Source of the DNA: a virus
Taxonomy: Duplodnaviria; Heunggongvirae; Uroviricota; Caudoviricetes
IMG/VR virus record: IMGVR_UViG_2778261696_000006
Length of the DNA stretch: 28,988 nucleotides
Direction: 5' to 3' (one strand)
The position numbers and the translations under genes are program-made. The notes below the pieces were generated by a model. It did no database searches. It was not told the origin of the DNA and was given only the letters and a program-made list of their open reading frames with translations. This document shows, piece by piece, positions 1-9,471 of this stretch (positions are counted from its first letter, which is position 1; every line of letters begins with the position of its first letter).

Positions 1-17
1 AACACGAGCAAACAGAC

Positions 18-46
18 AAAAAAAGGGCCAGCCAATTGGCCAGCCC
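18..46 (-). terminator. Putative rho-independent terminator downstream of int
   Basis: On minus-strand RNA GGGCUGGCC-AAUU-GGCUGGCCC forms a 9-bp stem (two G-U pairs) followed by a U7 run; on the plus strand the stem has two mismatches and no U-tract. Confidence 0.45.
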
Positions 47-172
47 TTCTTAACAGGATGTCGCTTAAGCGAAATCTTAGTTAAGACGCTCCTATTAACA
101 CCCCACAGCGAACAAACACTTACCATATAAAACAACTAGTTAAAGTAATTTTTAATGCAGTGAATTGCAGTG

Positions 173-1222
173 TTATGCAACCTCTGCCGCCACATTGTCG
201 CCAACATACAGCGATAACGGATTGAGGGTTACAGCTTGTTCAAGGTGGTCAGGAGCAAAGTGCGCATACTTCATTGTTTCTCGAATATTGGCATGTCCGA
301 GAATTTTCTGCAGCACCAGTATATTCCCTCCGTTCATCATAAAATGCGCACCAAAAGTATGACGCAAAACGTGCGTCTTCTGCCCTTCCGTCAATTCAAT
401 ATTCGTTAGTTTGAGCATCTTTTTAAACTCCTGATAGCAGGGTTTAAACATTCTGCCTTGACGTACGGACAACTCGTCGTACAGCCATTTAGGAATAGGA
501 ACTGTGCGATTCTTCTTACCTTTGGTTTTGGTGAACGTTAGTTTATATGGAGAAAGTTGAGGTCGGGTCAATCTCTCCGCTTCCCCCCATCGAGCGCCGG
601 TTGCAAGGCACACCTTAACAATCATGGTGAGGTCTTCTTTGCCGTATTGCTCGCAGGCTCGAAACAGCTCCGGGAGCTGAGACAAAGTTAGCCAGGACAT
701 TTCTTTCTCAGCTTCTTTGAATACTCGGATCCCATCAAGTGGATTGGGTAGGCTCCACTCCCCTAACCGGCGGAGCTCATTAAACACTGCTTCTAGGTAT
801 TGTTGTTCGCGATTGACGGTTATAGGTTTGGCGATCCATTTCGAGGGGTCTTTATGATAACCATTGTCTATTTCACCACGTAATCGACGGTCACGATAAT
901 GAGCCCAGTCTTTCGCGGTAAGGCGAGATGCAATCGGGTCGCCAAGTCCATTACATACGATTTGAAGCTTTGCAAACCTCGACTTACTGGCGACTAACGC
1001 TTGACCGTGCAAATTGTGCCAAAGCTGAATAATCTCGCTTAAGCGTCGGCGGTCTTCTTTCTTGCCGAGCCACGGCTTATCTTCACTCTCGCTTTTGGTA
1101 AATGCTTCAAATGCCTCGGCCTCACCTTTGGTATTGAACTGCCGACGTATACGCCGTCCTTCTCGACCATTTGGATAGAGTTCACACAACCATTTTCCAC
1201 TTTTTTGTTTACTTACAGTCAT
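173..1222 (-). CDS. int: Phage integrase, tyrosine recombinase (P2/186 Int family)
   Basis: 349-aa ORF with ATG start; C-terminal HVLRHTF...MKYAH catalytic motifs typical of tyrosine recombinases; position at prophage end next to repressor. Confidence 0.9.
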   Translation of the reverse strand: MTVSKQKSGKWLCELYPNGREGRRIRRQFNTKGEAEAFEAFTKSESEDKPWLGKKEDRRRLSEIIQLWHNLHGQALVASKSRFAKLQIVCNGLGDPIASRLTAKDWAHYRDRRLRGEIDNGYHKDPSKWIAKPITVNREQQYLEAVFNELRRLGEWSLPNPLDGIRVFKEAEKEMSWLTLSQLPELFRACEQYGKEDLTMIVKVCLATGARWGEAERLTRPQLSPYKLTFTKTKGKKNRTVPIPKWLYDELSVRQGRMFKPCYQEFKKMLKLTNIELTEGQKTHVLRHTFGAHFMMNGGNILVLQKILGHANIRETMKYAHFAPDHLEQAVTLNPLSLYVGDNVAAEVA

Positions 1223-1246
1223 TGCGATACCGAGGCTAAAAGAAAA

Positions 1247-1585
1247 TTAATTACAAAGGGCTGTAGCGGCATCAATCACCGGTGAAATTGAAATTTTAAC
1301 GCCGTCATACTCAGGGTCATCCTTCCATACGTCATCTAAGTTAGACCCCTCCAGCTTTCCTGATTTAACAGCATCTACCGCCATGCCATTCAGAGGATAT
1401 CTATCATCAGTTTTGATGTCATACACAAAAGCATAAGCACGGTTAACACATGATACCTTTGCCTTTTCAAAGGTTAGAGGCCACTTGTCACCATATGCAG
1501 CGCCGTCTATCTCTTTAAACTTCTCAGCGGCTATGGCTGAGGAAGAAAGTGCAATGCAGACTATCGCAAATATAAACTTTTTCAT
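1247..1585 (-). CDS. Small secreted/periplasmic protein of unknown function (moron between cI and int)
   Basis: 112-aa ORF, N-terminal signal peptide MKKFIFAIVCIALSSSAIAAE, two Cys in mature part, strong RBS AAGGAG 6 nt upstream of ATG; resembles small YebY/DUF2511-type periplasmic proteins from memory only. Confidence 0.6.
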   Translation of the reverse strand: MKKFIFAIVCIALSSSAIAAEKFKEIDGAAYGDKWPLTFEKAKVSCVNRAYAFVYDIKTDDRYPLNGMAVDAVKSGKLEGSNLDDVWKDDPEYDGVKISISPVIDAATALCN

Positions 1586-1594
1586 TACTGCTCC

Positions 1595-2440
1595 TTAAAC
1601 ATGCTTTTCCAAAGTAAAAATAACCGCACCTGATGGTGTGATATCTGAAATATTACATTCAAACTCAGCAGACTTATTTGATAACCTGACCTTTCCGCCT
1701 GGCAACCTGATTACGTCAAAAACATCGAGTGCGCCATCAATACCAATAAGCCAGCGACCATTTCCTATCTTCGAGTTAGAACTATCAACAAGCCAAGATG
1801 TGCTCACACCATCAATAAACACTAAATCATCAGTATTTGATGGAACCATAGATATATCAGGAGTCCAGCGTCCGATATCTTTGAGTTCGCCCGCCTCGAG
1901 GCGGCACTTTCTAATCGTTAAAGCATTTGCCGGTTCACCATCATTACTGTTACGCATCTGGCCTTTTCCGGTTGATAACCATTCTAACGATACGCCAGTA
2001 TCAAGGGCGCAAGTGACAACCACGTCACCGGGGAAAAAATCGCGTCTAACCCAAGTGCTTATAGTGCCGGAAGATATACCTAATAAATCTCCAAGCTCTT
2101 TTTGCAGAGTAAAACCATACGCATCGAGAATCCGACGCAGAACCGCCCTCCCTCCATTTGCCATGATTTCATCATAGAGTTGCTTACCTTTAAGCTTAGT
2201 TTTCACCACTTCAAATCTTGCATTTGCAAGCTCACCATTAATTAGCCATCGCAGGTCAGCTCCAGTATCAAGAGCACACTCAACGAAAACGTTGCTAGGG
2301 ATTACGTTTCTAGCAAGCCAGCTACTCACGTTGTTTGCATGTATGCCAAGCCTTTCGGCTAGTTCCTTTTGCTGCTTAAAGCCGTATGCAGAAAGGACAC
2401 GTTCCAATGCGGCAGACGCATTAACATCATTTTTAGACAT
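1595..2440 (-). CDS. cI: 186-type CI immunity repressor with tandemly duplicated N-terminal HTH domain
   Basis: Track ORF 1595-2629 trimmed to internal ATG at 2440 (MSKNDVNA...); two copies of motif AYGF-QKEL-LGI...W...CALDTG-L-WL-G, C-terminal region resembles 186 CI C-terminal domain (...LPGGKV...FEC...). Confidence 0.75.
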   Translation of the reverse strand: MSKNDVNASAALERVLSAYGFKQQKELAERLGIHANNVSSWLARNVIPSNVFVECALDTGADLRWLINGELANARFEVVKTKLKGKQLYDEIMANGGRAVLRRILDAYGFTLQKELGDLLGISSGTISTWVRRDFFPGDVVVTCALDTGVSLEWLSTGKGQMRNSNDGEPANALTIRKCRLEAGELKDIGRWTPDISMVPSNTDDLVFIDGVSTSWLVDSSNSKIGNGRWLIGIDGALDVFDVIRLPGGKVRLSNKSAEFECNISDITPSGAVIFTLEKHV

Positions 2441-2461
2441 ATAACACCAACAAGAATTTTG

Positions 2462-2490
2462 TTTACAACCAAAATTTAGCGATCTATATT
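2462..2490 (+). promoter_or_regulatory. Putative rightward lytic promoter (pR-like): -35 TTTACA, 17-bp spacer, -10 TATATT
   Basis: Sigma70-like hexamers in the 113-bp cI/apl intergenic region, flanked by ACACC/GGTGT inverted half-sites (2444-2448, 2491-2495, 2511-2515). Confidence 0.4.
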
Positions 2491-2543
2491 GGTGTTCACC
2501 GACCAAGATGCACACCACTGCACTACATTTCAAACAACAGGAG

Positions 2544-2572
2544 ATAATGCGATATGTCAGATGCAAAATCAA
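2544..2572 (-). promoter_or_regulatory. Putative leftward lysogenic promoter (pL-like), convergent with pR
   Basis: On minus strand TTGATT (2567-2572) -17 bp- CATTAT (2544-2549); would give face-to-face transcription with the pR candidate as described for 186. Confidence 0.25.
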
Positions 2573-2925
2573 TCTCGACGCACGACTCGCAAAACTCACA
2601 AAATCAAACTGTGCTGCTAGATCCAACACAGTTTGATGCCATCGTTACCGCCATGCTGCCAGCTCTACAGACAATGATTCGCTCCGCTATGTCAGACACG
2701 ATGACTGTGAAAGACTTCGCCGCTACTCGCGGTGTTAGCGAGCGTCTGGTCTGGCAATGGCTCGATGAGGGAGTCCTTCTCAAAGCTCCGACCAAAGACT
2801 TTTCCAACAAAGAGGAAGCTGCTAAACGAAGCCGAACCCTCGTAAATGTAAAAGCATGGCGCGATAAGCTGACTCAACAAGCGATTGATTGTCGCTACAT
2901 CGACCAGCGCACCGCTCTTAACTGA
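2554..2925 (+). CDS. Apl/Cox-like HTH protein (putative excisionase and switch regulator); start uncertain
   Basis: 123-aa ORF, RBS AGGAG 9 nt upstream, HTH-like segment TVKDFAATRGVSERLVWQWLDEGVL; first gene of rightward early operon, position equivalent to 186 apl / P2 cox. Confidence 0.5.
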   Translation: MSDAKSISTHDSQNSQNQTVLLDPTQFDAIVTAMLPALQTMIRSAMSDTMTVKDFAATRGVSERLVWQWLDEGVLLKAPTKDFSNKEEAAKRSRTLVNVKAWRDKLTQQAIDCRYIDQRTALN

Positions 2926-2957
2926 ATTTGATTATGCAAGTTAGAGGGAATTTAACC

Positions 2958-3467
2958 ATGTTTGATTTTCAGGTTTCCAAACATCCCCACTATGACGAAG
3001 CATGCCGCATTTTCGCACAGCGTCACAACATGGCGAAGCTGGCCGAGCGTGCAGGTATGAACGTTCAAACGTTACGTAACAAGCTCAACCCGGAACAGCC
3101 TCACCAGTTCACGCCGCCTGAATTGTGGCTGCTGACTGACCTGACCGAAGACTCAACCCTCATTGATGGTTTTTTAGCGCAGATTCACTGCCTACCATGC
3201 GTGCCGGTTAATGAGTTGGCTAAAGACAAATTGCAGTCTTATGTCATGCGCGCAATGCGTGAACTCGGCGAACTGGCGAGCGGCGCGGTATCTGATGAAC
3301 GTCTGACCACTGCCCGTAAGCACAACATGATTGAAAGCGTTAACTCCGGCATTCGCATGTTGTCATTGTCGGCTCTGGCGCTGCATGCACGTCTGCAGAC
3401 TAATCCAGCTATGTCGAGCGTGGTCGATACCATGAGCGGTATTGGCGCATCGTTTGGTCTGATTTGA
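2958..3467 (+). CDS. cII: 186-type CII regulatory protein
   Basis: Track ORF trimmed to ATG at 2958 (MFDFQVSKHPHYDEACR...), matches remembered 186 CII N-terminus and length (169 aa); RBS AGAGGGA upstream. Confidence 0.8.
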   Translation: MFDFQVSKHPHYDEACRIFAQRHNMAKLAERAGMNVQTLRNKLNPEQPHQFTPPELWLLTDLTEDSTLIDGFLAQIHCLPCVPVNELAKDKLQSYVMRAMRELGELASGAVSDERLTTARKHNMIESVNSGIRMLSLSALALHARLQTNPAMSSVVDTMSGIGASFGLI

Positions 3468-3468
3468 G

Positions 3469-3675
3469 GTGCGTATGCTGAAAAGTGAACCGTCATTCGC
3501 ATCTCTGCTCGTTAAGCAAAGCCCCGGCATGCACTACGGCCACGGCTGGATCGCAGGTAAGGACGGCAAGCGCTGGCACCCGAGCCACTCGCAGGCTGAT
3601 TTACTGGCTGGCCTCTCTACTCAAAAGCGGGGGGGATCATGGCTATCGAAGCTGTTTCCGCGACTGTTCCGCTAA
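3469..3675 (+). CDS. Fil-like small protein (possible host cell-division inhibitor); start GTG 3469 or ATG 3475
   Basis: 68-aa ORF directly following cII stop (translational coupling), motif SPGMHYGHGWIAGKDGKRW; position equals 186 fil. Confidence 0.45.
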   Translation: MRMLKSEPSFASLLVKQSPGMHYGHGWIAGKDGKRWHPSHSQADLLAGLSTQKRGGSWLSKLFPRLFR

Positions 3676-3977
3676 AAGCGGGTGAACGTCTGGCCGGTCT
3701 CAATCATGTTGCCGAATTGCGCGCGAGATATTGGGGCGATAGCTGGAAAGAGGTTGAACGTTTTGTCGATGATATGCGCAATAAACGTGACCCACAATTT
3801 GAAGAAAATAATCGGGCGCTGGCCGCTATTTTCTTTCTGGCAAAAATACCGGCGGCTCGTCATGAACTCGAATTAAGTGAGCTGACTACTGACGAGAAAA
3901 AGGCGCTTATTACAGCGATGAATCATTTTCGTGCAGTAGTGAGCTTATTTCCCAAACGGCTAACCATGCCGAATTAA
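3639..3977 (+). CDS. Hypothetical early protein (position of 186 dhr-region genes)
   Basis: 112-aa ORF with ATG and G-rich RBS, overlaps preceding gene by 37 nt in another frame. Confidence 0.5.
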   Translation: MAIEAVSATVPLKAGERLAGLNHVAELRARYWGDSWKEVERFVDDMRNKRDPQFEENNRALAAIFFLAKIPAARHELELSELTTDEKKALITAMNHFRAVVSLFPKRLTMPN

Positions 3978-4044
3978 TCCAAACAGAAATTTAATGGCGT
4001 AAACCCGCCGGGCATCTTATTGCCCGAAATCAGGAGAGTTAATT

Positions 4045-4272
4045 ATGCGTAATACCGAAATCCGTAGTTTTAACACTGATAGCGATGCGCTGGCCGTATT
4101 GCTGACCGATGCAAAAAAAGAAGAGCGTAAAGACCGCGCGCTCGCTGTTTCCATCCGCCTTGAGGCGCTGGCTATCCATATTACCAGAGAGGGAATGAGC
4201 GGCACCGAAGCTGCCGAACTGCTGCGCCGTGAAGCAACCCGCTTTGAGAATGAATCACAGGAGCTGCACTAA
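4045..4272 (+). CDS. Hypothetical small early protein
   Basis: 75-aa ORF, RBS AGGAG 8 nt upstream of ATG, TAATG overlap with next gene. Confidence 0.55.
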   Translation: MRNTEIRSFNTDSDALAVLLTDAKKEERKDRALAVSIRLEALAIHITREGMSGTEAAELLRREATRFENESQELH

Positions 4273-4493
4273 TGGCCGACGCAATGGATTTAGCACAACT
4301 GCGCGAGCAGGAAGACCGCGAACGCCACATCAGCAACGCACGCACCCGTATCGCTGCACCTTCCCGTTTTCTTTGCGATGAATGTGACGCACCAATCCCG
4401 GAAGCTCGCCGCATTGCGATTCCGGGCGTGGCTTTTTGCGTAACCTGCCAGCAAATCGCAGAGCTAAAAAACAAACACTATCGGGGGGTATAA
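4272..4493 (+). CDS. TraR/DksA-family C4 zinc-finger protein
   Basis: 73 aa with C-x2-C-x17-C-x2-C (CDEC...CVTC) characteristic of TraR/DksA-type zinc fingers; lies immediately upstream of replication gene. Confidence 0.7.
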   Translation: MADAMDLAQLREQEDRERHISNARTRIAAPSRFLCDECDAPIPEARRIAIPGVAFCVTCQQIAELKNKHYRGV

Positions 4494-4494
4494 A

Positions 4495-6717
4495 TTGGCT
4501 GTTCAATTCGCTTATCCGTGGAACGTTCCACGGTCGGCAATCTCCAGCCCATACCTTACTTATGCGCAACAGCATCGCCGCGACCGTATGTTCGCGGCTT
4601 TGCTGCATGCAAAAAAGGTGCTTTCTCTCCAGCCCGACTGCGTGCGGTTAGATGTTTATCGCACTGCTGCGGTGCTGGAGCAAAATCAGGGTAGTCAACG
4701 AGCCAATGCATTTTTAATCAGCTTCTGCAAAAAGGCATTGCCGCGTCTTGAACTGGTCGCAAAAAAATACGAATGCGCTGGTATCAACAGCAAGGTATCA
4801 ACCGCTGTTTTTGGAAGTCATTTTGATACTCAGCAAATGCAATATCTGTCGTCACGCATGGTTAATATGGTCGCCCGATATAACCGTCTCCCGGACATGT
4901 CGCGCGCTGATGTTGACCTGTTGGCCGCTGATATTGCTAATTTCATTCGTGGTGAACTTGCCAACATTAATGACCACGGATTCGGCGAGCTTAAAACGCT
5001 GTACACCTGGTATATTCGTGCTGGCTTTATTTCCCTCCAATTTAACGTTATCCCACCACATTGGGAGCGGGTTGAAAAAAAATATGTCGGTGCGGATGAA
5101 ATCGCACCGGCTATCGCCAAAATGTTTAACGATGGGTGGTGGCGCGGTCGTTTGCGCCGTGTTGCAGCTACGTGGCGCGAACACCTGCAAATTGCAGTCG
5201 GCAACGTCAGTAAGAAAAAAAACACTTACGCGAGTAAAAACTGCGTGACTGACTGGCGTGAACAAAAGCGCCGCACTCGTGAATTTCTCAAAGGTCTGGA
5301 TCTCGAAGACGAAGACGGCAACCGTATCAGCCTGATTGAAAAATATGATGGCTCAGTTGCTAACCCTGCGATTCGCCGCTGTGAGCTCATGACCCGCATT
5401 CGTGGGTTTGAAAACATCTGTAATGAGCTCGGTTATGTCGGTGAGTTTTACACTCTAACCGCGCCGTCAAAATATCACGCCACGACTAAAGCCGGTTACC
5501 GTAACAGCAAATGGAGCGGTGCCAGCCCGGCTGACACGCAAAACTATCTAACCGGTATCTGGGCGCGTATCCGTGCCAAACTACATCGGGAAGATGTCCG
5601 TATTTTCGGTATTCGTGTCGCCGAGCCTCATCACGACGGCACTCCACACTGGCACATGCTGATGTTCATGCTGCCGGAAGATGTTGAATATGTTCGCTCC
5701 ATCGTCCGTAAATACGCATGGAAAGAAGACCGCCACGAACTGAAAAGCGATAAATCCAAAAAAGCACGTTTCCACGCCGAGTCCATTGACCCGGAGAAAG
5801 GCAGTGCAACCGGCTATGTTGCTAAATACATCTCAAAAAATATCGACGGTTATGCTCTCGATGGTGAAACCGATGATGAAAGCGGTGAGCTGCTGAAAGA
5901 GACAGCCCCCGCCGTTTCAGCATGGGCTGCGCGCTGGCACATCCGTCAGTTTCAGTTTATTGGTGGTGCGCCGGTGACGGTTTACCGTGAGTTGCGTCGC
6001 CTCGCTGATACCGAAACCGCGCGCGGTCTGAGCGTTGAGTTTGCCGCCGTCCATGATGCCGCCGACGCTGGTGACTGGGCTGGTTATGTTAATGCTCAGG
6101 GTGGGCCGTTTGTCCGTCGCGATGATTTACAGGTGCGCACACTGTATGAACCGCGTACCGAGCTTAATCAGTACGGTGAGGAAACGGTATGTATTAAGGG
6201 GGTCTACGATTCCTCCATAGGTGCAGGGAGTCCGATTTTAACCCGGCTCACTCAGTGGAAGATTGTTCCGAAGCGTGCTGTTGATTTGGCCGTTGACCTT
6301 CAGGACGGCAAAGCCGTCCCTCGGAGTTCTGTCAATAACTGTACGGGAAGCGAAAGCGATCCACCGATACTGGATTTAACAAAACCACTGAGTCGGCGTG
6401 AAAGACGAGAATTGACCAACCGACTCAGGAAGCAAAAGCCAGCAGCACGGCGAAAACTCATCCACGGAACGGATGAGCAAAACGCAGCTATAGCTAAAAC
6501 TATCGACGAGATACATCTGACAACCGGCATTAATATCAGCCGGGGCGAAGCCCTGCACCTGATGGCCGGTGGTAAAAGTTGTTTTGATGGTAAATGGCTA
6601 CGCGGAACGGCCAAAGGAGAAATATTTTCCGCAGCACCATCGCATGAGGCTAAAGCTCGGAAAATCCTTAATCGTGTTGCGGCGATGGCTGAAGCATCAA
6701 AACCAATACATGAGTAA
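4495..6717 (+). CDS. A: Replication initiation protein A (rolling-circle HUH endonuclease); start is TTG 4495 or a downstream ATG
   Basis: 740-aa ORF containing HUH motif (TPHWHMLMF) and catalytic tyrosine motif YVAKYISKNIDGYALDG as in P2/186 gpA. Confidence 0.9.
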   Translation: MAVQFAYPWNVPRSAISSPYLTYAQQHRRDRMFAALLHAKKVLSLQPDCVRLDVYRTAAVLEQNQGSQRANAFLISFCKKALPRLELVAKKYECAGINSKVSTAVFGSHFDTQQMQYLSSRMVNMVARYNRLPDMSRADVDLLAADIANFIRGELANINDHGFGELKTLYTWYIRAGFISLQFNVIPPHWERVEKKYVGADEIAPAIAKMFNDGWWRGRLRRVAATWREHLQIAVGNVSKKKNTYASKNCVTDWREQKRRTREFLKGLDLEDEDGNRISLIEKYDGSVANPAIRRCELMTRIRGFENICNELGYVGEFYTLTAPSKYHATTKAGYRNSKWSGASPADTQNYLTGIWARIRAKLHREDVRIFGIRVAEPHHDGTPHWHMLMFMLPEDVEYVRSIVRKYAWKEDRHELKSDKSKKARFHAESIDPEKGSATGYVAKYISKNIDGYALDGETDDESGELLKETAPAVSAWAARWHIRQFQFIGGAPVTVYRELRRLADTETARGLSVEFAAVHDAADAGDWAGYVNAQGGPFVRRDDLQVRTLYEPRTELNQYGEETVCIKGVYDSSIGAGSPILTRLTQWKIVPKRAVDLAVDLQDGKAVPRSSVNNCTGSESDPPILDLTKPLSRRERRELTNRLRKQKPAARRKLIHGTDEQNAAIAKTIDEIHLTTGINISRGEALHLMAGGKSCFDGKWLRGTAKGEIFSAAPSHEAKARKILNRVAAMAEASKPIHE

Positions 6718-6777
6718 TTCATATCCATATCATGCACATACAGCAATCGCTCTATTCGTTTTTTTTCTTCCCATCTT

Positions 6778-6811
6778 TTGCCAATACGTGCTACTGTATA
6801 AATATACAGTA
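6778..6811 (+). promoter_or_regulatory. SOS-regulated promoter: -35 TTGCCA (6778-6783) with LexA box TACTGTATAAATATACAGTA (6792-6811)
   Basis: Perfect 9-bp dyad arms CTGT-N8-ACAG matching LexA consensus, overlapping the -10 region 20 nt upstream of ATG 6831. Confidence 0.75.
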
Positions 6812-6830
6812 ACCCTGTGGGAGGGATTTC

Positions 6831-7013
6831 ATGGTTGGCGAACATTTCAGCCGAACGCAGCAAAAGTGGGCTTGTGTGCAATTTATTGCCGAGGTATCTC
6901 TGATTGCAAACTGCAAGCCATCAGACTTAAAGCTCGCGCTCACTCTCATTGCAGACCTAGCAAACAGCGAAAATAACGAAACCGAAGATGATAATTTTTA
7001 TAAGGCTGATTAG
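6831..7013 (+). CDS. LexA-controlled small protein, candidate Tum-type antirepressor
   Basis: 60-aa ORF with RBS GGGAGGG, immediately downstream of LexA box; positional analogy to the 186 p95/tum operon; no sequence-level confirmation possible here. Confidence 0.4.
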   Translation: MVGEHFSRTQQKWACVQFIAEVSLIANCKPSDLKLALTLIADLANSENNETEDDNFYKAD

Positions 7014-7016
7014 ATT

Positions 7017-7247
7017 ATGAGAATCAATATCACGTTGGATAAAGAGCAAAAATTAGGGCAACAGATCATTGATGCTTTTCAGAATGAAATAACACATCGA
7101 GTACAATGCGTTTTTCCTGCAACAAAAGTTAACGTTAAGAAAGGGTCAATGACTGGTGTAGAGGCTATCGGATTCGATAAAGAGGCGGACAGAGAAACAT
7201 TAGGCAGCATATTACAAGAGATTTGGGAAGACGATAGCTGGCGTTAA
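7017..7247 (+). CDS. dinI: DinI-family protein
   Basis: 76 aa, MRINITLDKEQ...LQEIWEDDSW resembles DinI family (MRIEV...ILQETWE); second gene of the LexA-box operon. Confidence 0.75.
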   Translation: MRINITLDKEQKLGQQIIDAFQNEITHRVQCVFPATKVNVKKGSMTGVEAIGFDKEADRETLGSILQEIWEDDSWR

Positions 7248-7265
7248 ACAGAATAACCGTGCTGG

Positions 7266-7329
7266 CGCAAAAACTAGCTTTTTGCGTCGGCGGGGTTGAG
7301 TAACGAGCCCACGAGGCTTAAGTCCTGCC
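7266..7329 (+). repeat. Structured repeat copy R1 (hairpin plus GGCGGGGTTGA...AACGAGC...ACGAGGC...CCTGCC)
   Basis: Hairpin CGCAAAAA-CTAGC-TTTTTGCG followed by conserved GC-rich core; about 80 percent identical to copy at 7672-7733. Confidence 0.6.
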
Positions 7330-7446
7330 TTTCAAAATTTCTCAATGTGCTATTGATGACACCCCCATGATTAATGAGGCATGACCTGAGATGGTTTTAT
7401 AGTGGCGTTTTGACGGCACTGATTAAAATTCATTGAGGGTGATAAT

Positions 7447-7656
7447 ATGCATCGACTACCAGGTGAAATTCCGCAGCACAAAACTAAATGCATCAAACTG
7501 ATGGCCATCGTTCATCGTCTGCAGCAGATAATGGTCAATGAGAATTTGACACCCGCCGAGCTGGTCGGGTGTGCCGAAATAGTCAGGGATAATTACGGCA
7601 AGCTGGATAGCATCAGCAAGCCGACACATTACTCACCGCCACCACGTCGACCATAG
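7447..7656 (+). CDS. Orphan 69-aa protein flanked by R1/R2 repeats
   Basis: ATG with RBS GAGG about 8 nt upstream; no recognisable motif; lies in the A-to-cos accessory interval. Confidence 0.45.
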   Translation: MHRLPGEIPQHKTKCIKLMAIVHRLQQIMVNENLTPAELVGCAEIVRDNYGKLDSISKPTHYSPPPRRP

Positions 7657-7671
7657 ATAACGCCGCCGGAG

Positions 7672-7733
7672 CTGAAACTCGCTTTCAGGTCTGGCGGGGT
7701 TGAACAACGAGCTACGCGAGGCGTTAGCCCGCC
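7672..7733 (+). repeat. Structured repeat copy R2 (hairpin plus GGCGGGGTTGA...AACGAGC...ACGCGAGGC...CCCGCC)
   Basis: Hairpin CTGAAA-CTCGC-TTTCAG then conserved core; outer GGCGGG/CCCGCC can pair (R1 keeps pairing via a G-U). Confidence 0.6.
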
Positions 7734-7938
7734 CCGTAGAGACCGCTCCAAACCGTCGCACTGAATGCCGGTTTTTTTATGTTATTTTCCCGCGATTTCC
7801 CCGTTTTTTAGCCGTGCATGCATCAGGTGCATGGTTTTGCATGCGTCAGTCTTGCCCCTTCTGTCCGTGCGCCGCCAGAGCTGGCGCGGATCCAGAGTTG
7901 TCATGCAACTGCATTAAAACCGACCCATAAAGCGGGCA

Positions 7939-7957
7939 GGCGTGGCGGGGAAAGCAT
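7939..7957 (+). other. cos: cos cohesive-end site (19-nt, 186-type)
   Basis: GGCGTGGCGGGGAAAGCAT matches the remembered 186 cohesive end (P2: GGCGAGGCGGGGAAAGCAC); the following sequence TGCGCGCCAGCGGTGGTGCG...CGTCGTGACGGCGCT resembles the P2 left end as I recall it; location between A-side accessory genes and 3' end of Q. Confidence 0.65.
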
Positions 7958-8161
7958 TGCGCGCCAGCGGTGGTGCGTATTATTAAAAATTATCGTCTGA
8001 GAACGTCGTGACGGCGCTGTAGTGGCCGGGTGTGATCGTGGGCGCGTGGTGCGTCTGTGGCGTGGTGCTAAAGGATGGGATCAGTTGCACAATTTTACGG
8101 TTTCGCTTTGGCTAATATCCATATTGAGACTTTATGTTCCCCACAACAGTTGGAGGCTTTA

Positions 8162-8386
8162 ATGGATAACTATCATATTACAAAAGATGGCGATAAGTGG
8201 AAGTTGCAAAAAGAGGGCAATGATCGCCCTAGCAAGACCGCGACCACAAAGGCCGAGCTGATTAAAACAACATCTGAGTTTATGTCGAACAAAACAGGCT
8301 CGGTCAAAATTCACAAGGAAGATGGGAAAATTCAGGAAGAACGCACTTATCAGAGAAAAGATGATCCTAAAAAGTCTAAAGGCTAA
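8162..8386 (+). CDS. DUF2188-like small protein (moron between cos and portal gene)
   Basis: 74 aa, RBS GGAGG 5 nt upstream of ATG; motif YHITKDGDKWKLQKEG...KAELIKTTSEF...VKIHKEDGKIQEERTY resembles DUF2188 family from memory. Confidence 0.55.
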   Translation: MDNYHITKDGDKWKLQKEGNDRPSKTATTKAELIKTTSEFMSNKTGSVKIHKEDGKIQEERTYQRKDDPKKSKG

Positions 8387-8392
8387 CATAGC

Positions 8393-8415
8393 AAAAGCCG
8401 CCAAAATGGCGGCTT
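8393..8415. terminator. Stem-loop between convergent genes (possible bidirectional terminator)
   Basis: AAGCCGCC-AAAAT-GGCGGCTT 8-bp stem between DUF2188-like gene (+) and Q (-); no strong U-tract on either strand. Confidence 0.35.
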
Positions 8416-8424
8416 AAAAGGTGA

Positions 8425-9471
8425 TTATTCCGGGTTGTCGAGTGTGTACTCTTTGAACCTGATGACCTCCATACCGAGCCAGTCGTTTACCTCCCTGAAC
8501 CTATCCTGCAGGGGTGACAGCTCATTACGCACAAATACCTTTGCCACCTTCTCAACGTCACCGAGTGAACCGATATTCTCGGGCTTGCCGCCCATGAGCT
8601 GGAACGGCACGCGGTGCGCGTCCATCAGGTCGGCGGCGCTGGCTTTCTTAATGTTGAAAAAGTCATCCTTTGTGGCGACCTCGCTCAGTGGCACGATTTT
8701 GATGCCGTCCGGTTTTCCGCCGGGGGCGTAGAAAAACAGGTTCTTAAAGTTGCCGAGTCCCTTCGAGTTACGCATCGCCTCGCGCAGCGATTCGACGTCG
8801 GTCGCACTTTGCGCCGGGTCAGTCACATACATGATGTAGCCTGCGTGCGCGCCGTTCTGATAATACTTGCGGCGGAACAGCGTCGCGGATTCATTCAGCC
8901 AAGCGGAATTAAGCGCGCTGAGATATTCCGGCAGACCGTAAATCTCCTGATTAATGTCGGGCTCCAGCAGGTGAAACACGGTATCAGGCGCGAACTCGTG
9001 CGGCTGGGTGAAGTTTTCCACAAACCAGAAAATCGAATCGTCGACTCCGCGTCGGGTGTATTTGGCTGGCGAGGCCAGCAGTTTGATTAACTGGCCGGTG
9101 ACGCTGTGGCGCTGCTCAAGAAAGGCGTTACCGAATACCAGATAATCGAGCGCAAAGCGGCTGAAATCCTGACGGGATAACAACGGGTGCGGAATGTAGG
9201 TGCTCGCGAGCACGTTACGCTTAACATAAATTGGCGAGCTGTGATGCACGGCAGAGCGCAGGCTCTTTGCCAGCCCTGAGAAGCTGACCGGCGGCTCGTA
9301 CCATTTGCCGTTACTGATGCACTCGACGTAATCCAGAATGTCGCGCTTATCGAGTACCGGCACCGGCTCGCCGAAGGTGAACGCTGTCGTTTTTGGCGGT
9401 GCGCTGGCGGTCAGTTGTTGTGGTTTGCTGGCCTTTTGTGCGTTGGCTTTACGGGATTTTTGTTTACCCAT
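8425..9471 (-). CDS. Q: Portal protein (P2 gpQ)
   Basis: 348 aa, size and position match P2 Q; stop/start overlap with P upstream on same strand. Confidence 0.9.
   Translation of the reverse strand: MGKQKSRKANAQKASKPQQLTASAPPKTTAFTFGEPVPVLDKRDILDYVECISNGKWYEPPVSFSGLAKSLRSAVHHSSPIYVKRNVLASTYIPHPLLSRQDFSRFALDYLVFGNAFLEQRHSVTGQLIKLLASPAKYTRRGVDDSIFWFVENFTQPHEFAPDTVFHLLEPDINQEIYGLPEYLSALNSAWLNESATLFRRKYYQNGAHAGYIMYVTDPAQSATDVESLREAMRNSKGLGNFKNLFFYAPGGKPDGIKIVPLSEVATKDDFFNIKKASAADLMDAHRVPFQLMGGKPENIGSLGDVEKVAKVFVRNELSPLQDRFREVNDWLGMEVIRFKEYTLDNPE

Follow-up and report, generated by a model that had tools for sequence, protein, structure and literature searches.

A predicted exported DUF2511 (YebY-family) protein encoded between cI and int in a PSP3-type Escherichia coli prophage

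The gene between cI and int of a 186/PSP3-type E. coli prophage very probably encodes an exported protein of the DUF2511 (YebY) family that is co-expressed with the CI repressor. The DNA analysed is a stretch of 28,988 nucleotides (IMG/VR record IMGVR_UViG_2778261696_000006; this whole stretch is referred to below as the window), which is a nearly complete prophage of the Peduoviridae (Eganvirus-like). Positions 1–3000 are 100% identical to E. coli strain EC12, in which the prophage is located just downstream of yfiB. The first approximately 55 nt of the window precede the first phage match and are apparently host DNA from that yfiB-proximal position.

The DUF2511 gene and its product

The DUF2511 coding sequence occupies positions 1247–1585 (−) and specifies a pre-protein of 112 aa; cI, the DUF2511 gene and int are all located on the minus strand. 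The first gene of this lysogenic operon encodes a 186-type CI repressor of 281 aa (1595–2440 (−); Pfam, PHROG 4, RefSeq 'phage repressor protein CI') with two PF07022 helix-turn-helix (HTH) domains and a C-terminal PF16452 domain, and the last encodes the tyrosine integrase (173–1222 (−); Pfam Int_N and Phage_integrase, PHROG 1). The unit is very compact, with the ribosome binding site of the DUF2511 gene sharing bases with the cI stop codon. Read along the minus strand, the junction is ...GTT TAA GGAGCAGTA ATG: the cI stop is at 1595–1597, the Shine-Dalgarno sequence AAGGAG (1591–1596) overlaps it, and a further 5 nt lead to the ATG at 1583–1585, so that stop and start are separated by 9 nt. 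This overlap (1591–1597 (−)) may permit translational coupling. At the other end, a spacer of 24 nt (1223–1246 (−)) lies between the DUF2511 stop (1247–1249) and the int ATG (1220–1222); it has no canonical Shine-Dalgarno sequence and includes the conserved motif GCCTCGGT at 1229–1236. The same spacer in diverged loci is 21–25 nt long, likewise lacks a Shine-Dalgarno sequence and retains the motif, which may have a role in the control of int translation. The GC content of the DUF2511 gene (42%) is close to that of cI (44%), compared to 53% for the whole window.

The predicted product begins with a Sec signal peptide (cleaved by SPase I) encoded by codons 1–19 (1529–1585 (−)). This segment, MKKFIFAIVCIALSSSAIA, has a K/K n-region, a hydrophobic core (maximum Kyte-Doolittle mean over 10 residues of 3.3) and an A-x-A pattern at positions −3 and −1, with cleavage predicted before AEK. 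As no lipobox is present in the N-terminus, the protein is not a lipoprotein. The mature part (1250–1528 (−)) is an alpha/beta domain of approximately 93 residues containing exactly two cysteines, C46 (1448–1450) and C111 (1253–1255). Nearly all of the 63 distinct alleles from 91 loci specify a K/R n-region followed by a hydrophobic core, with small residues at −3 and −1 ahead of AEK, and retain the two cysteines. The signal peptide call is based on these features and on alignment with E. coli YebY, a protein found experimentally to be periplasmic and to contain a Cys48–Cys113 disulfide (PMC8689200); the predicted mature start corresponds to the first residues of the YebY crystal chain. The mature phage proteins have a mean net charge of −4.6 and are more acidic than YebY.

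Several observations show that the frame is not a chance reading frame. It has a full-length match to PHROG 2950 (E 1.8e-55), and its dN/dS ratio (Nei-Gojobori, nine phage or prophage loci) is 0.16 over the entire gene, 0.11 in the mature part and 0.52 in the signal peptide, the features of the latter being kept, like the cysteines, despite its sequence drift.

The protein is a member of Pfam family PF10709 (DUF2511; E 1.1e-18, 67.8 bits against a gathering score of 21), with residues 29–111 aligned to positions 5–87 of the 87-position model. Its score, its cysteine pair and its predicted signal peptide are all in keeping with membership of this family. The sole solved relative identified by sequence is E. 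coli YebY (PDB 7N0J; E 3.8e-8, profile E 5e-12), in which W37 aligns with W35 and C48/C113 with C46/C111. An AlphaFold2 model built from 22 homologues (pLDDT 79, pTM 0.69) matches YebY in Foldseek with an E-value of 8e-7 and a TM-score of 0.84, and is predicted to form a four-stranded antiparallel sheet packed with helices, as in 7N0J and in the MlbQ structure 2MVO. The mature domain thus has the YebY/MlbQ (DUF2511) fold and retains the cysteine pair of the family. An NCBIfam search with the protein gave no meaningful match. The initial annotation had described a 112-aa frame between cI and int on the same strand, an AAGGAG ribosome binding site, a 9-bp distance from the cI stop, a signal peptide and two cysteines in the mature part, and each of these agrees with the ORF listing, the bases themselves and the predicted n-, h- and c-regions with their AxA|AEK site, which recur in nearly all alleles; its tentative assignment to YebY/DUF2511 proved correct by the Pfam, 7N0J and Foldseek results.

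Despite this common fold, the phage protein and YebY differ in genomic setting. YebY is encoded by the third gene of the yobA-yebZ-yebY copper-uptake operon, whereas the window gene is part of a prophage lysogenic operon with cI and int as its neighbours in place of CopC (yobA) and CopD (yebZ). Given this and an identity of approximately 30%, we consider the protein to be a paralogue of YebY and not an orthologue. Recent capture of a host yebY gene is ruled out by the same low identity, together with the saturated synonymous sites between alleles.

Expression from the lysogenic operon

Co-expression of the DUF2511 gene with cI in the lysogen is plausible from the architecture of the operon and from comparison with phages 186 and K139, whose lysogenic operons have been mapped. 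Between cI, the DUF2511 gene and int there is neither a promoter-like site of at least 9/12 nor a terminator-like site. We also considered a separate promoter for the DUF2511 gene within the 3' end of cI, and rejected it: the best candidate is an 8/12 match approximately 250 nt upstream, and none reaches 9/12. No Rfam match to a structured RNA was obtained in positions 1–9000 of the window.

The top promoter-like site in positions 1–3000 is a candidate pR at 2462–2490 (+) (TTTACA-17-TATATT, 10/12), which is the putative lytic promoter facing the lysogenic operon and corresponds in position to pR of 186. A weak candidate pL (TTGATT-17-CATTAT, 8/12) at 2544–2572 (−) would be the promoter of all three genes from cI to int. 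The two candidates are arranged face-to-face, as pL and pR are in 186 and in the mapped switches of both 186 and K139. The lysogenic transcript probably ends at a strong terminator-like hairpin in the host flank downstream of int (20–51 (−); a 14-bp stem followed by a T-run), since the prophage is inserted immediately beside it. Because the cI stop overlaps the DUF2511 Shine-Dalgarno sequence, no terminator-like site or promoter-like site of at least 9/12 intervenes, and the candidate switch resembles those of 186 and K139, expression in the lysogen is a well-founded expectation. Transcription would start at the lysogenic promoters, pE during establishment and pL during maintenance, and would cover the DUF2511 gene together with cI and int. 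The lysogen would thus produce the protein continuously, and after export to the periplasm its C46–C111 disulfide would be formed by DsbA.

Two other parts of the window were noted in passing. The gene in the apl/cox position (2554–2925 (+), 123 aa) has no Pfam family and a weak HTH-like PADLOC match; Nilsson et al. 2011 (PMC3448106) have likewise called the PSP3 Cox/Apl analogue a singleton. A DinI-like gene (7017–7247 (+); E 1.7e-17) and a DUF2188 gene (8075–8386 (+); E 7e-18) are located in the accessory region that separates the replication gene from the portal gene, and no cargo the size of a defence system was found there. The tail-tip and tape-measure genes of the window are homologous to P2 T, U, D, V and X.

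Distribution, relatives and allelic divergence

As a sequence feature, the gene is ordinary: it is an annotated and widespread PSP3-type accessory gene of known family and fold. It occupies the cI-int slot in Salmonella phages PSP3 (orf28/gp28), SEN1, SW9 and SI22, in Escherichia phages Midge and vB_EcoM-613R3 (Gp28), and in Klebsiella phage RCIP0057. The Midge product is annotated as a 'putative periplasmic protein' and RefSeq WP_000713422 as a 'DUF2511 domain-containing protein'; the context was also noted in 2021, when several Enterobacteriaceae were reported to encode YebY homologues flanked by a XerD-type recombinase and a phage CI HTH protein (PMC8689200). Both the gene and its setting are therefore already known. 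PSP3 orf28 and its orthologues (PHROG 2950) share with the window gene their length and their position between a double-HTH CI and int, with gaps of 8–9 nt and 22–24 nt; their proteins are 63–84% identical to that of the window (65% for the PSP3 type), and only the allele differs.

The context survey is based on IMG/VR loci and individual look-ups, the clade alignment having matched three species-representative genomes. In all 80 IMG/VR loci fetched by the clade alignment, cI is followed by the DUF2511 gene, and 79 of them have both the gap of 8–9 nt and the TAAGG(A/G) overlap of stop and Shine-Dalgarno sequence. The int gene comes next after 21–25 nt, or after approximately 606 nt if an extra gene is present; one locus stops short of int. 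Records of the identical protein come from 919 contigs. The int-to-cI region is found in 67 of 5426 complete E. coli genomes, 17 complete genomes carrying the exact allele of the window and at least 7 carrying other alleles.

In phage 186, cI and int abut and the DUF2511 gene is absent, as the initial annotation had stated. The gene is thus an optional accessory of 186-type phages. It had also been presented as a special insertion in this prophage, a view that has to be given up: PSP3-type Eganvirus phages carry it as a rule, and it had been annotated before. Most related prophages carry it at this position, which is half of what had been named as counting against the initial reading; the other half, a known function for the gene, was not found.

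Some variation in the region was also observed. An extra gene of 166 aa (Pfam bPH_3 and SHOCT) is located between the DUF2511 gene and int at 3924–4424 of locus L005 and 4475–4975 of L013/L014, and L033–L035 and L039 likewise have an extra gene and a gap of approximately 606 nt; the slot downstream of cI can therefore accept further cargo. The 281-aa CI with a double PF07022 domain is common to all PSP3-type loci, whereas the CI of 186 has 192 aa and one HTH. In a more distant prophage, L011, a short CI of 194 aa is paired with a DUF2511 gene.

More distant relatives are numerous. An exhaustive search of 1.84 billion cluster representatives returned 490 members at E <= 1e-3 and one at E <= 1e-30. 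Nine of the nearest, 33–40% identical to the window protein, were looked up for context. Three (P0025, P0026 and P0027) again come from the cI-int interval of 186-like prophages, P0025 with a short, single-HTH CI. Three others are on P2-like prophages: P0033, with an N-terminal zinc ribbon and membrane anchor, beside ogr/gpD; P0036 beside gpD; and P0031 in a different control region. P0054 is chromosomal and YebY-like, following CopC-CopD, and the contigs of the remaining two are too short for context. The DUF2511 genes at these other sites of P2-like prophages (L097 4001–4486, L099 193–555 and L101 4001–4333) include some at the prophage end beside ogr/gpD, one of them with the fused zinc ribbon and transmembrane anchor, and another after a 118-aa gene in a different control region. 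Relatives in the cI-int slot or beside ogr/gpD are 35–40% identical to the window protein. The occurrence of DUF2511 genes both in the cI-int slot and at other sites of P2-like prophages makes these genes recurrent Peduoviridae cargo.

Two further loci are of note. The degraded 186-like prophage in CP134152.1 (L013/L014, 1–4339) retains an int fragment, cI and a DUF2511 gene approximately 3.5 kb downstream of a chromosomal CopD-YebY pair, so that two DUF2511 paralogues are near neighbours; this proximity may be a coincidence or a hint at the origin of the phage gene. On a short metagenomic contig (L015, 195–1142), a DUF2511 gene follows a gene for a 198-aa protein with weak WYL and BRCT matches. 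That arrangement recalls K139 (L102, 1781–3099), in which the BRCT protein gene orf2 precedes glo; the BRCT link between L015 and K139 orf2 is non-significant (E 0.11) and was discarded.

Within the PSP3-type group, purifying selection acts on the DUF2511 gene, which has nonetheless diverged about as far as the immunity gene and is exchanged independently of both cI and int. Mean pairwise amino acid identity is 68% for the DUF2511 protein, 70% for CI and 86% for Int. The window and 613R3 have int genes that are 99% identical, but DUF2511 genes that are 65% identical. Conversely, Midge and RCIP0057 share 99.3% identity in cI and 77% in the DUF2511 gene, with dS values of 0.04 and 1.67, respectively, and several IMG/VR prophages are 98% identical to the window in cI but 64% in the DUF2511 gene. 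This combination (cI 98–99%, DUF2511 64–77%) is seen when L045–L048 and L056–L057 are compared to the window and when L003 is compared to L010. Near-identical cI genes next to DUF2511 genes with saturated synonymous divergence place recombination breakpoints a few nucleotides to either side of the DUF2511 gene.

In a set of 75 distinct alleles that includes database proteins, the mature part has 24 positions without variation. Its conserved core (WPL.F, C, FVY, RYP, GK and P) is largely common to YebY, and variability is found at positions 23–30, 49–50, 57–58, 68–71, 81–85 and 92–109. With a dN/dS far below 1 over the whole gene, the data do not demonstrate an arms race, and the deep divergence of the alleles could result merely from linkage to the hypervariable immunity region.

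Possible functions in the lysogen

The initial annotation had proposed lysogenic conversion or superinfection exclusion, and both roles are treated here as hypotheses. The function that we favour, tentatively and by analogy, is that of a periplasmic superinfection-exclusion or entry-blocking protein. The product would be a soluble periplasmic binding protein protecting the lysogen at the envelope, with exclusion of superinfecting phages as its most likely role. Its target could be a periplasm-exposed component of the incoming phage, for example the tail tip or the tape-measure protein; another possibility is that it obstructs the route of DNA entry at the inner membrane.

The closest analogue is Glo of K139, a Vibrio phage of the P2 family in which glo is directly upstream of int in a cI-orf2-glo-int operon. 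Glo is annotated as 'periplasmic protein; involved in phage exclusion', and in PMC3952083 it is cited as an exceptional soluble periplasmic exclusion protein. Like Glo, the window protein is small, has a predicted signal peptide with one N-proximal and one C-terminal cysteine, and is encoded in the cI-int slot of a P2-family prophage. Homology between the two was considered and rejected (no common Pfam family, no BLASTP match and an hhalign probability of 1%), so the analogy with Glo extends to position and predicted location and no further. A second parallel is Ltp of Streptococcus thermophilus phage TP-J34, along with the lactococcal Sie2009-type genes. Ltp is the product of a lysogeny-module gene transcribed in the prophage; it is extracytoplasmic and blocks DNA injection via the tape-measure protein. 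It is a membrane-tethered surface lipoprotein of a Gram-positive host, and is likened to the window protein here by location and operon position.

Other results point away from exclusion. As summarised in PMC3952083, the exclusion proteins besides Glo are membrane-anchored, whereas the window protein is predicted to be soluble. The functional data for the family concern copper import (YebY) and lantibiotic binding (MlbQ), and the candidate pL is weak (8/12). No family of the PADLOC-DB 2.0 defence-protein HMMs matched the window protein at E <= 0.1, and we therefore rejected its identification as a known anti-phage defence protein. In the literature on the phage copy of DUF2511, we found no paper on its function and no experimental or transcript data; of two proteomics papers mentioning a DUF2511 protein, one concerns the chromosomal YebY and the other an unassigned gene copy.

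The family data suggest two rival functions. The protein could mimic YebY, acting on the host YobA/YebZ (CopC/CopD) copper importer to damp or re-tune uptake and, as a lysogenic-conversion trait, altering copper-dependent mar induction as well. It shares its Pfam family and fold with YebY, which has been found experimentally to lower YebZ-dependent copper accumulation (PMC11923076); the phage-borne P0025 protein, 42% identical to E. coli YebY, bridges the two groups; and the degraded prophage of L013/L014 places cI and a DUF2511 gene within approximately 3.5 kb of CopD-YebY. We nevertheless regard this role as unlikely. The window protein is only distantly similar to YebY (approximately 30% identity) and E. 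coli hosts already possess yebY, while alleles within one host species differ by at least 35% and are shuffled, which would be unexpected of a protein with a conserved host partner such as YebZ. In none of the contexts examined is the gene linked to CopC or CopD on the phage, and PMC8689200 treats the cI-recombinase context as unrelated to copper. The other rival is sequestration of the type performed by MlbQ (PDB 2MVO/6QFP), the self-resistance lipoprotein for the lantibiotic NAI-107 in the Gram-positive Microbispora: a periplasmic antimicrobial peptide or bacteriocin would be bound, making the lysogen immune or tolerant. The fold and the WPLT motif fit this proposal. Sequence similarity to MlbQ is marginal (E 0.33), however. 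MlbQ also has a lipid anchor and a long linker, and its gene belongs to a cluster with lantibiotic and ABC-transporter genes, whereas the window protein is without a lipobox and no transporter or bacteriocin gene is located near its gene; a function of this kind appears improbable.

A last alternative dispenses with any envelope phenotype in the host. The product could serve the control of lysogeny or integration by the phage itself, or the frame could tune int translation by coupling. The extremely tight packing of the gene between cI and int is consistent with this, as is the spacer: int has no Shine-Dalgarno sequence and GCCTCGGT is conserved, so int translation may depend on upstream sequence. 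Retention of the signal peptide, the cysteine pair and the 24 invariant mature residues in 75 alleles under purifying selection points instead to a folded, exported protein that has its own function. In addition, 186 manages without the gene, and relatives located elsewhere in their genomes are not beside int. We consider such a control function very improbable, and the probability that remains belongs to explanations other than the four discussed here.

Returning to superinfection exclusion, a broader and more doubtful proposal is that prophage DUF2511 proteins form a distinct class of recurrently captured, soluble periplasmic proteins that are coupled to the repressor and block competing phages. 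They might do so by occluding an inner-membrane import route, much as YebY restrains YebZ. If exclusion is the correct reading, the phage branch of DUF2511 would gain its first physiological function and the Peduoviridae a second soluble periplasmic exclusion protein, unrelated to Glo, with consequences for phage therapy and for competition between prophages. If copper import were tuned instead, the prophage would be linked to copper-dependent antibiotic tolerance. In either case the gene concerned is borne by approximately 1% of complete E. coli genomes and by related prophages of Salmonella, Klebsiella, Enterobacter and Pantoea.
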